From Escherichia coli (GTDB lineage Bacteria > Pseudomonadota > Gammaproteobacteria > Enterobacterales > Enterobacteriaceae): DNA of 64,000 bases. Position numbers and translations under genes: made by a program. Each line of letters starts with the position of its first letter. The first letter of the stretch is position 1. The notes under the pieces were generated by a model. The model was not told the DNA's origin. It searched no databases and saw only the letters and a list, made by a program, of their open reading frames with translations. This document shows, piece after piece, positions 52,418-52,568 of this stretch. The DNA lies in assembly GCF_003334355.1 (NCBI RefSeq), contig NZ_QOWP01000009.1, one strand, 5' to 3'.

Positions 52418-52457
52418 TGCTGGATAGCACCGTCAAGCTAAATTCCGTACTGAACGG

Positions 52458-52495
52458 TCCCCTCGCCCCTTTGGGGAGAGGGTTAGGGTGAGGGG
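52458..52495. repeat. GC-rich imperfect palindromic element of unknown family
   Basis: CCCCTCGCCCCTTTGGGGAGAGGGTTAGGGTGAGGGG between yhfS and frlR. Confidence 0.4.
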
Positions 52496-52530
52496 AACGT
52501 ACGGGATGTAAAATTCAACGCGCCAGCATC

Positions 52531-52568
52531 GCCGGATGCGATGCTGGCGCATCTTATCCGGCCTACGG
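52531..52568. repeat. REP element between yhfS and frlR
   Basis: GCCGGATGCGATGCTGGCGCATCTTATCCGGCCTAC. Confidence 0.65.

Follow-up and report, generated by a model that had tools for sequence, protein, structure and literature searches.

Two catalogued repeats, BoxC and a single REP, lie side by side in the yhfS–frlR spacer of Escherichia coli

Introduction

What occupies the space between two convergent genes when that space is strongly structured and carries no annotation of its own? The question is raised by a locus within a 64,000-nucleotide stretch of Escherichia coli DNA (the window), in which yhfT–yhfS on the + strand and frlR–frlD on the − strand run towards each other and leave a short spacer between their stop codons:

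52418–52568: spacer of 151 bp between convergent yhfS (+) and frlR (−), from the list of open reading frames and the RefSeq annotation of identical K-12 DNA
52415–52417, + strand: yhfS stop codon, TAA
52569–52571, − strand: frlR stop codon, TAA (TTA on the + strand)

A preliminary description of this DNA had reported a composite spacer of 151 bp between convergent yhfS and frlR, in which a GC-rich imperfect palindrome, unlike a standard REP, is followed by a canonical REP adjoining the frlR stop codon. The positions of the stop codons bear out the extent and orientation (52418–52568 lies between them), and the composite make-up was correctly described. RNA folding, which had been put forward as a check, finds the spacer to be structured on both strands, with z-scores for its whole length of −5.5 (+) and −5.8 (−) and no shuffled sequence folding equally well. 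The window is DNA of E. coli K-12 MG1655, and from 52300 to 52700 it is 100% identical to K-12 genomes. In the corresponding part of the MG1655 RefSeq record (NC_000913.3, 3,498,000–3,510,000), only CDS features are given, leaving both REP and BoxC unannotated.

The answer we arrive at is an ordinary one. The spacer holds two non-coding repeats that are already known and catalogued, BoxC and a single REP, and neither of these elements is a chance feature. Two catalogued extragenic repeats lying side by side, with the roles proposed for them below, are almost certainly the best explanation of the spacer as a whole. Both sit in the 3′ region common to the two convergent genes, and neither encodes anything.

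The first element is a BoxC repeat

The string quoted for the first element, CCCCTCGCCCCTTTGGGGAGAGGGTTAGGGTGAGGGG (37 nt), is found at 52459–52495, once in the window and not at all in 100 shuffles. The imperfect palindrome is real, with a start at 52459 rather than at 52458 as first given. A genome-wide search for copies had been suggested, and in the full set of 5,426 complete E. coli genomes a 73-nt query around the element returned 88,447 places, a median of 17 per genome, of which 88,396 are chromosomal and 51 are on plasmids; almost all are unannotated. With so many places, nearly all of them chromosomal and unannotated, the first element is a dispersed repeat, and these numbers, together with the absence of matches in the 100 shuffles, rule out a chance palindrome.

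The family of this repeat, which the preliminary description had considered impossible to name with confidence, is a catalogued one. Holder et al. 2015 (PMC4666352) equate their TMECO triplex motif with the element earlier named BoxC and with the PIT element of Maher's group, and list 23 copies in MG1655 (their Table 1). Number 15 of that catalogue is CCCTCGCCCCTTTGGGGAGAGGGTTAGGGTGAGGGG, of type 'A mm' (one mismatched triad), on the minus strand of NC_000913 at 3,504,892–3,504,857, at a distance of 73 nt from frlR and 41 nt from yhfS (their Suppl. Table S2). Base-by-base mapping places window positions 52440–52512 at NC_000913.3 3,504,912–3,504,840, reversed. Because both the 36-nt sequence and the mapped coordinates coincide, 52460–52495 is exactly TMECO no. 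15. The published pattern, 5′-CCCTCNCCC N3-6 GGGNGAGGG N3 GGGNGAGGG[G/T/C/-]-3′ (PMC4666352), likewise gives a regular-expression match at 52460–52494, followed by G at 52495. The parts of the element are as follows:

52460–52495, + strand: BoxC / PIT / TMECO core, TMECO no. 15 (Table 1, Suppl. Table S2 and coordinate mapping)
52454–52498, + strand: BoxC unit common to other copies, ACGGTC, the 36-nt core and AAC (from 11 aligned type-A copies)
52460–52469, + strand: C-rich block CCCTCGCCCC, Watson–Crick partner of the central block, with the mismatch at G 52465 (triad table)
52473–52482, + strand: central purine block GGGGAGAGGG (triad table)
52486–52495, + strand: third block GGGTGAGGGG, the reverse-Hoogsteen strand in the triplex model (triad table and folds)
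52445–52450, + strand: local flank CCGTAC, which pairs with 52499–52504 and lengthens the BoxC hairpin (inverted repeats)
52499–52504, + strand: local flank GTACGG, partner of 52445–52450 (inverted repeats)

The copy between fabI and ycjD (TMECO no. 9; PMC4666352) is identical to the spacer copy at 43 of 44 bases. Additional copies were located by blastn-short, which matched the spacer BoxC to copies at fabI, yraQ–dolP, ypfG–tkt and ytfQ–ytfR; the 11 type-A copies that we aligned come from different loci and are all intergenic and near-identical. We take the fabI (envM)–ycjD copy to be the founding one, described as 'box C' by Bergler et al. 1992. With the BoxC/PIT/TMECO family (Bergler 1992; Bachellier et al.; Hoyne and Maher 2000; Holder et al. 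2015) the spacer copy shares its three-block build, its loops (TTT between blocks 1 and 2, TTA between blocks 2 and 3), its intergenic site and its near-identity to type-A copies. Only its surroundings set it apart from other BoxC copies: its flanks hold a 6-bp palindrome, and it lies where two accessory islands join.

The flank palindrome, CCGTAC/GTACGG, is private to this copy and is absent beside the other aligned BoxC copies. In the 11 copies, conservation covers about 14 nt upstream (roughly GCGCACGGACGGTC), the 36-nt core and about 4 nt downstream, AAC(A). The upstream 8–10 nt or so of this family conservation are looser, and their far-left part has diverged in the spacer copy. The conserved span is compatible with the length of 50–56 bp quoted for the BoxC unit (PMC2267715). 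Overall, BoxC can be described as a multi-copy unit of about 45–56 bp with the block order C10-loop-G10-loop-G10.

Predicted and reported structure of BoxC

The reading of the first element as an imperfect palindrome stands as far as it goes; it is incomplete in that the element is a three-block C-G-G motif, whose third block is a possible triplex strand. In the triad table, 9 of the 10 triads are C:G*G or T:A*T, as in a purine-motif, class II intrastrand triplex, and the sixth position is a G.A*A mismatch, which accounts for the label 'mm'. Nearest-neighbour folding, which cannot model triplexes, predicts an alternative hairpin in which the third block pairs with 52459–52468 through one G.T wobble. 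As single-stranded DNA, 52454–52499 is predicted to fold at −13.1 kcal/mol (z = −3.1).

For an oligonucleotide of type A mm, an intrastrand purine-motif triplex has been demonstrated in vitro by CD and NMR, with a Tm of about 74 °C, and the non-triplex control in the same work was the sequence of the spacer copy itself with four G-to-C changes (PMC4666352). When the complementary strand was present, only duplex formed, and DMS footprinting in vivo revealed no protection (PMC4666352). Earlier work, as summarised in PMC4666352, found neither promoter nor terminator activity for PIT/BoxC and no block to replication in vivo, and TMECO loci vary more between strains than control intergenic sites do (PMC4666352). 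No later functional studies of BoxC/TMECO were found in the literature that we searched. A single strand of BoxC may thus fold as a hairpin or, as seen in vitro, as a very stable intrastrand triplex; in the duplex chromosome, the element would act mainly as homology scattered over the genome and as a spot that is fragile or variable.

A different structure could be drawn for the G-rich half, in which the runs GGGG, GGG, GGG and GGGG fall within 52473–52495 and might form a G-quadruplex; the reported CD signature also fits a parallel quadruplex (PMC4666352). The NMR spectrum of the oligonucleotide, however, contains 18 sharp imino signals and is triplex-like, whereas an intramolecular quadruplex would give 3–4 (PMC4666352). 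That a quadruplex rather than the triplex is the relevant structure is accordingly very unlikely.

A single REP adjoins frlR

The second element is a genuine REP, as the preliminary description had it, although its end was set two bases too far: the string GCCGGATGCGATGCTGGCGCATCTTATCCGGCCTAC occupies 52531–52566, and it is position 52568 that adjoins the frlR stop codon. Overlapping its left half lies a second palindrome, which was absent from the earlier description of the spacer:

52531–52566, − strand (frlR sense): single REP (PU), with GTAG at 52566–52563 followed by a bulged palindrome, GCCGGATaaGATGC / GCATCgcATCCGGC
52520–52532 and 52538–52550: perfect 13-bp palindrome, GCGCCAGCATCGC-CGGAT-GCGATGCTGGCGC, 100% complementary, overlapping the left half of the REP

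From its stop codon, the frlR-sense strand reads TAA-CC-GTAG-GCCGGATAAGATGC-GCCA-GCATCGCATCCGGC, so that 2 nt lie between the stop and the REP motif and 6 nt between the stop and the REP stem. The REP palindrome has 14-nt arms that are 86% complementary, with a mismatch of AA against GC, around a loop of 4 nt. REPs, which are substrates of TnpA_REP, are recognized by a GTAG that precedes an imperfect, internally bulged palindrome (PMC8266576). Like the REP/PU elements of E. coli described there (PMC8266576), the spacer element combines GTAG with an imperfect palindrome bulged by two bases and is extragenic and multi-copy. The REP part alone matches further unannotated places in other genomes. 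In its 36-nt length and TGGC loop the spacer REP may resemble the Z2 type, and in its stem ends the Y type.

A REP pattern with a fixed internal spacing of 14 nt returned only the spacer copy, and a pattern with a variable gap revealed two more REPs in the window, at 44752–44785 and 44813–44841, which have the same head and tail and together form the BIME after trpS (44752–44841). The head GCCGGATG and the tail CTTATCCGGCCTAC are common to the spacer REP and the REP at 44752–44785. The K-12 BIME after trpS is a pair of REPs of types Y and Z1. A BIME was rejected as a description of the yhfS–frlR spacer, which has one REP and no alternating pair.

In predicted folds of both RNA and DNA, the 13-bp palindrome dominates over the REP's own stem. 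It was not seen in the other REP matches, and it could, to judge from these folds, alter how the REP behaves. In the O157-type allele, two substitutions fall within the palindrome, A52525G and C52548T, both of which lead to G.T wobbles on the + strand; two changes are not significant.

The REP would give the frlR mRNA a 3′ stem-loop and, presumably, protection from 3′ exonucleases. According to Liang, Rudd and Deutscher 2015, as quoted in PMC12306157, REPs no more than 15 nt from a stop codon stall ribosomes. Because it begins 2 nt after the stop codon, the spacer REP falls among those reported to make ribosomes stall at termination and to reduce expression. Compared with the stop-proximal REPs described there, it lies within the same distance and on the frlR mRNA strand; effects of the REP on frlR itself are steps that we infer.

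Two accessory islands meet at the spacer

Comparison with strains that lack the element, another check that had been proposed, separates the 5,426 genomes into a few arrangements. The K-12-like order, yhfS–BoxC–REP–frlR, is found in 2,862 of them. In 2,105, the frl island is missing and yhfS runs into yhfL; these genomes lack frlABCDR together with both repeats. A further 342 are of O157 type, in which trpS is followed by 14 nt and then by BoxC–REP–frlR, without yhfZ–yhfS. The other 117 have various arrangements, including one with IS1 in the yhfS 3′ end and that of strain C4. Two blocks of DNA account for the two main differences:

52419–57660: frl island (BoxC, REP and frlR–frlA), absent as one 5.2-kb block in 2,105 genomes
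44720–52453: yhfZ–yhfS (php) cluster, absent in O157-type genomes, with its right end adjoining the BoxC unit

The spacer is thus the boundary of two accessory islands, each of which can be present or absent. In genomes without frl, some 29 nt of different sequence stand in place of 52419–57660, after which yhfL follows, and no repeat is evident at the boundaries. O157:H7 SS17 gave a single match, which lies in yhfL, and the 3′ end of yhfS had no match there.

On the other side of the php cluster, the trpS–yhfZ spacer (window 44720–44900) exists in three states, with a BIME (K-12), with BoxC (1,525 genomes) or with neither. Here different repeat families occupy one intergenic site, between trpS and its terminator hairpin (extracted loci 2087–2240 and 2087–2130).

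Several rarer alleles were also seen. In strain C4, a 52-nt deletion removes the greater part of BoxC together with its right flank and keeps the REP (positions 301–447 of the extracted locus); this rare allele also has an 8-nt insertion, and its left flank is nearer to the BoxC family consensus than that of K-12. At the 3′ end of yhfS, immediately before the spacer, strain CFSAN051542 carries an IS1-family element (extracted locus 1749–2446). In the O157-type strain 2010C-3347, the annotation gives frlD as a pseudogene interrupted by an internal stop (extracted locus 3447–4232).

Alternative readings of the spacer

Two hairpins 3′ of convergent genes could owe their presence to a role as a bidirectional terminator of yhfS and frlR. 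Both elements do lie 3′ of their genes with strong predicted folds, and on the − strand there is a terminator match, a 6-bp stem at 52531–52516 followed by AATTTTACAT, as well as the stronger 13-bp hairpin followed by GTTGAATTTTACAT. Yet the scan returned 1 terminator-like site where shuffled sequences lead one to expect 1.2, and that one site uses not the 13-bp palindrome but the different, weaker 6-bp stem, with the same AATTTTACAT tail. Further, no T-run follows BoxC on either strand, PIT/BoxC lacked terminator activity in the work summarised in PMC4666352, and 2,105 frl-less genomes have neither repeat after yhfS. Termination is therefore an unlikely reason for the two elements, and on the predicted folds the 13-bp palindrome with GTTGAATTTTACAT on the − strand is a weak candidate for a terminator of frlR. 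The same structure might instead mark a regulatory RNA, either a small RNA or a cis-acting element, given that it is strongly predicted on both strands and that Rfam, searched at a permissive E-value, includes the REP-derived naRNA4 (RF02564) among its matches, the others being chance matches of miRNA type. The naRNA4 match is, however, below threshold, at 31.7 bits against a gathering score of 59.5, and as the best match it leaves no Rfam family at gathering score; the sole promoter-like site points away from the spacer, antisense into yhfS, and is at chance level; and the two repeats account fully for the structure. We regard an RNA gene or element here as extremely improbable. The promoter-like site itself, TTGACG-16-AATACT at 52409–52436 on the − strand, antisense into the yhfS 3′ end, is probably a product of chance, since 1 was found where 0.4 were expected.

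Whether the spacer BoxC arrived by transposition, as a MITE-like miniature mobile element, is a separate matter. In its favour, BoxC ends in inverted repeats of about 13 nt, GGTCCCCTCGCCC / GGGTGAGGGGAAC, its copies at different loci are numerous and near-identical, and its presence at a given site varies between strains, the trpS–yhfZ spacer being empty, occupied by BoxC or occupied by a BIME. Against this, the flanks of the 11 aligned copies contain no consistent target-site duplication, and the ends of the element are not sharply defined; nor do we know of any transposase for BoxC. The spacer around occupied and empty sites also differs, so that there is no clean insertion footprint, and BoxC is nearly absent from plasmids (51 of the 88,447 places) and from phages, where even partial matches are confined to 5 of 50,697 records. 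Insertion as a MITE is in our view improbable, and the reading that we retain is that of a dispersed, catalogued repeat.

Among those phage records, Campylobacter phages A18a and A11a (174 kb) each contain, in three places, 43-nt stretches 97.7% identical to E. coli BoxC. BoxC is odd for such a host, and the records may reflect contamination of the assemblies.

The TMECO pattern exists far outside Enterobacteria. In species-representative genomes, the matches listed include at least 150 in Mitsuaria chitosanitabida, at least 13 in a Methylomirabilota MAG and at least 3 in a Contendobacter MAG, in agreement with the wide distribution of TMECOs already reported (PMC4666352). Among the matches listed outside E. 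coli, the arms are always GGGAGAGGG / GGGTGAGGG, each taxon has loops of its own, and inverted pairs of copies 30–250 nt apart are frequent. Common arms in high copy in bacteria as distant as Mitsuaria and the Methylomirabilota MAG may point to a shared structural or protein-recognition constraint.

A hybrid BoxC junction marks the loss or gain of yhfZ–yhfS

How the O157-type arrangement relates to the K-12-like one can be read from a third configuration. In strain E2865, BoxC is present at both ends of yhfZ–yhfS, in the same orientation; 7,699 bp separate the two copies, which are identical along 43 nt. The O157-type junction follows, base for base, the left flank of the trpS-side copy through BoxC and then continues with the right flank of the frlR-side copy. 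This single hybrid BoxC junction is carried by 342 genomes.

Recombination or slippage between two direct copies of BoxC would be expected to leave such a junction, as would integration in the reverse direction. On this reading the spacer BoxC is the crossover point of a 7.7-kb deletion of yhfZ–yhfS or of the reciprocal integration. A homology of 43 nt is short for RecA-dependent recombination, and slippage or another route may therefore be involved. Recombination between distant TMECOs has been mentioned only as possible in principle (PMC4666352). As in other repeat-mediated deletions, such as those flanked by REP or IS elements, direct repeats surround the segment, here of 7.7 kb, and a hybrid single copy is left behind; unlike in those cases, the repeat is the triplex-capable BoxC.

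A stronger proposal is that BoxC copies serve as recombination joints that bracket accessory cassettes, with the capacity to form a triplex, rather than mere homology over 43 nt, having stimulated the yhfZ–yhfS event. We put this forward tentatively and think it rather doubtful; any contribution of the triplex fold to recombination, as opposed to that of plain 43-nt homology, is again a step that we infer.

Implications

For annotation, both elements of the spacer have names, a literature and a catalogue entry, so that a new explanation is unnecessary. The BoxC-to-BoxC hybrid junction is a modest side result, and what the locus adds is limited to this: it is a natural example of a gene cluster flanked by BoxC/TMECO copies, with a hybrid single copy marking its loss. 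If this account is true, a second, direct BoxC after trpS would have let the 7.7-kb yhfZ–yhfS cluster excise or integrate as a unit, giving rise to the O157-type arrangement, and the site would offer a defined locus for asking whether triplex-capable repeats promote deletion beyond what short homology alone allows.
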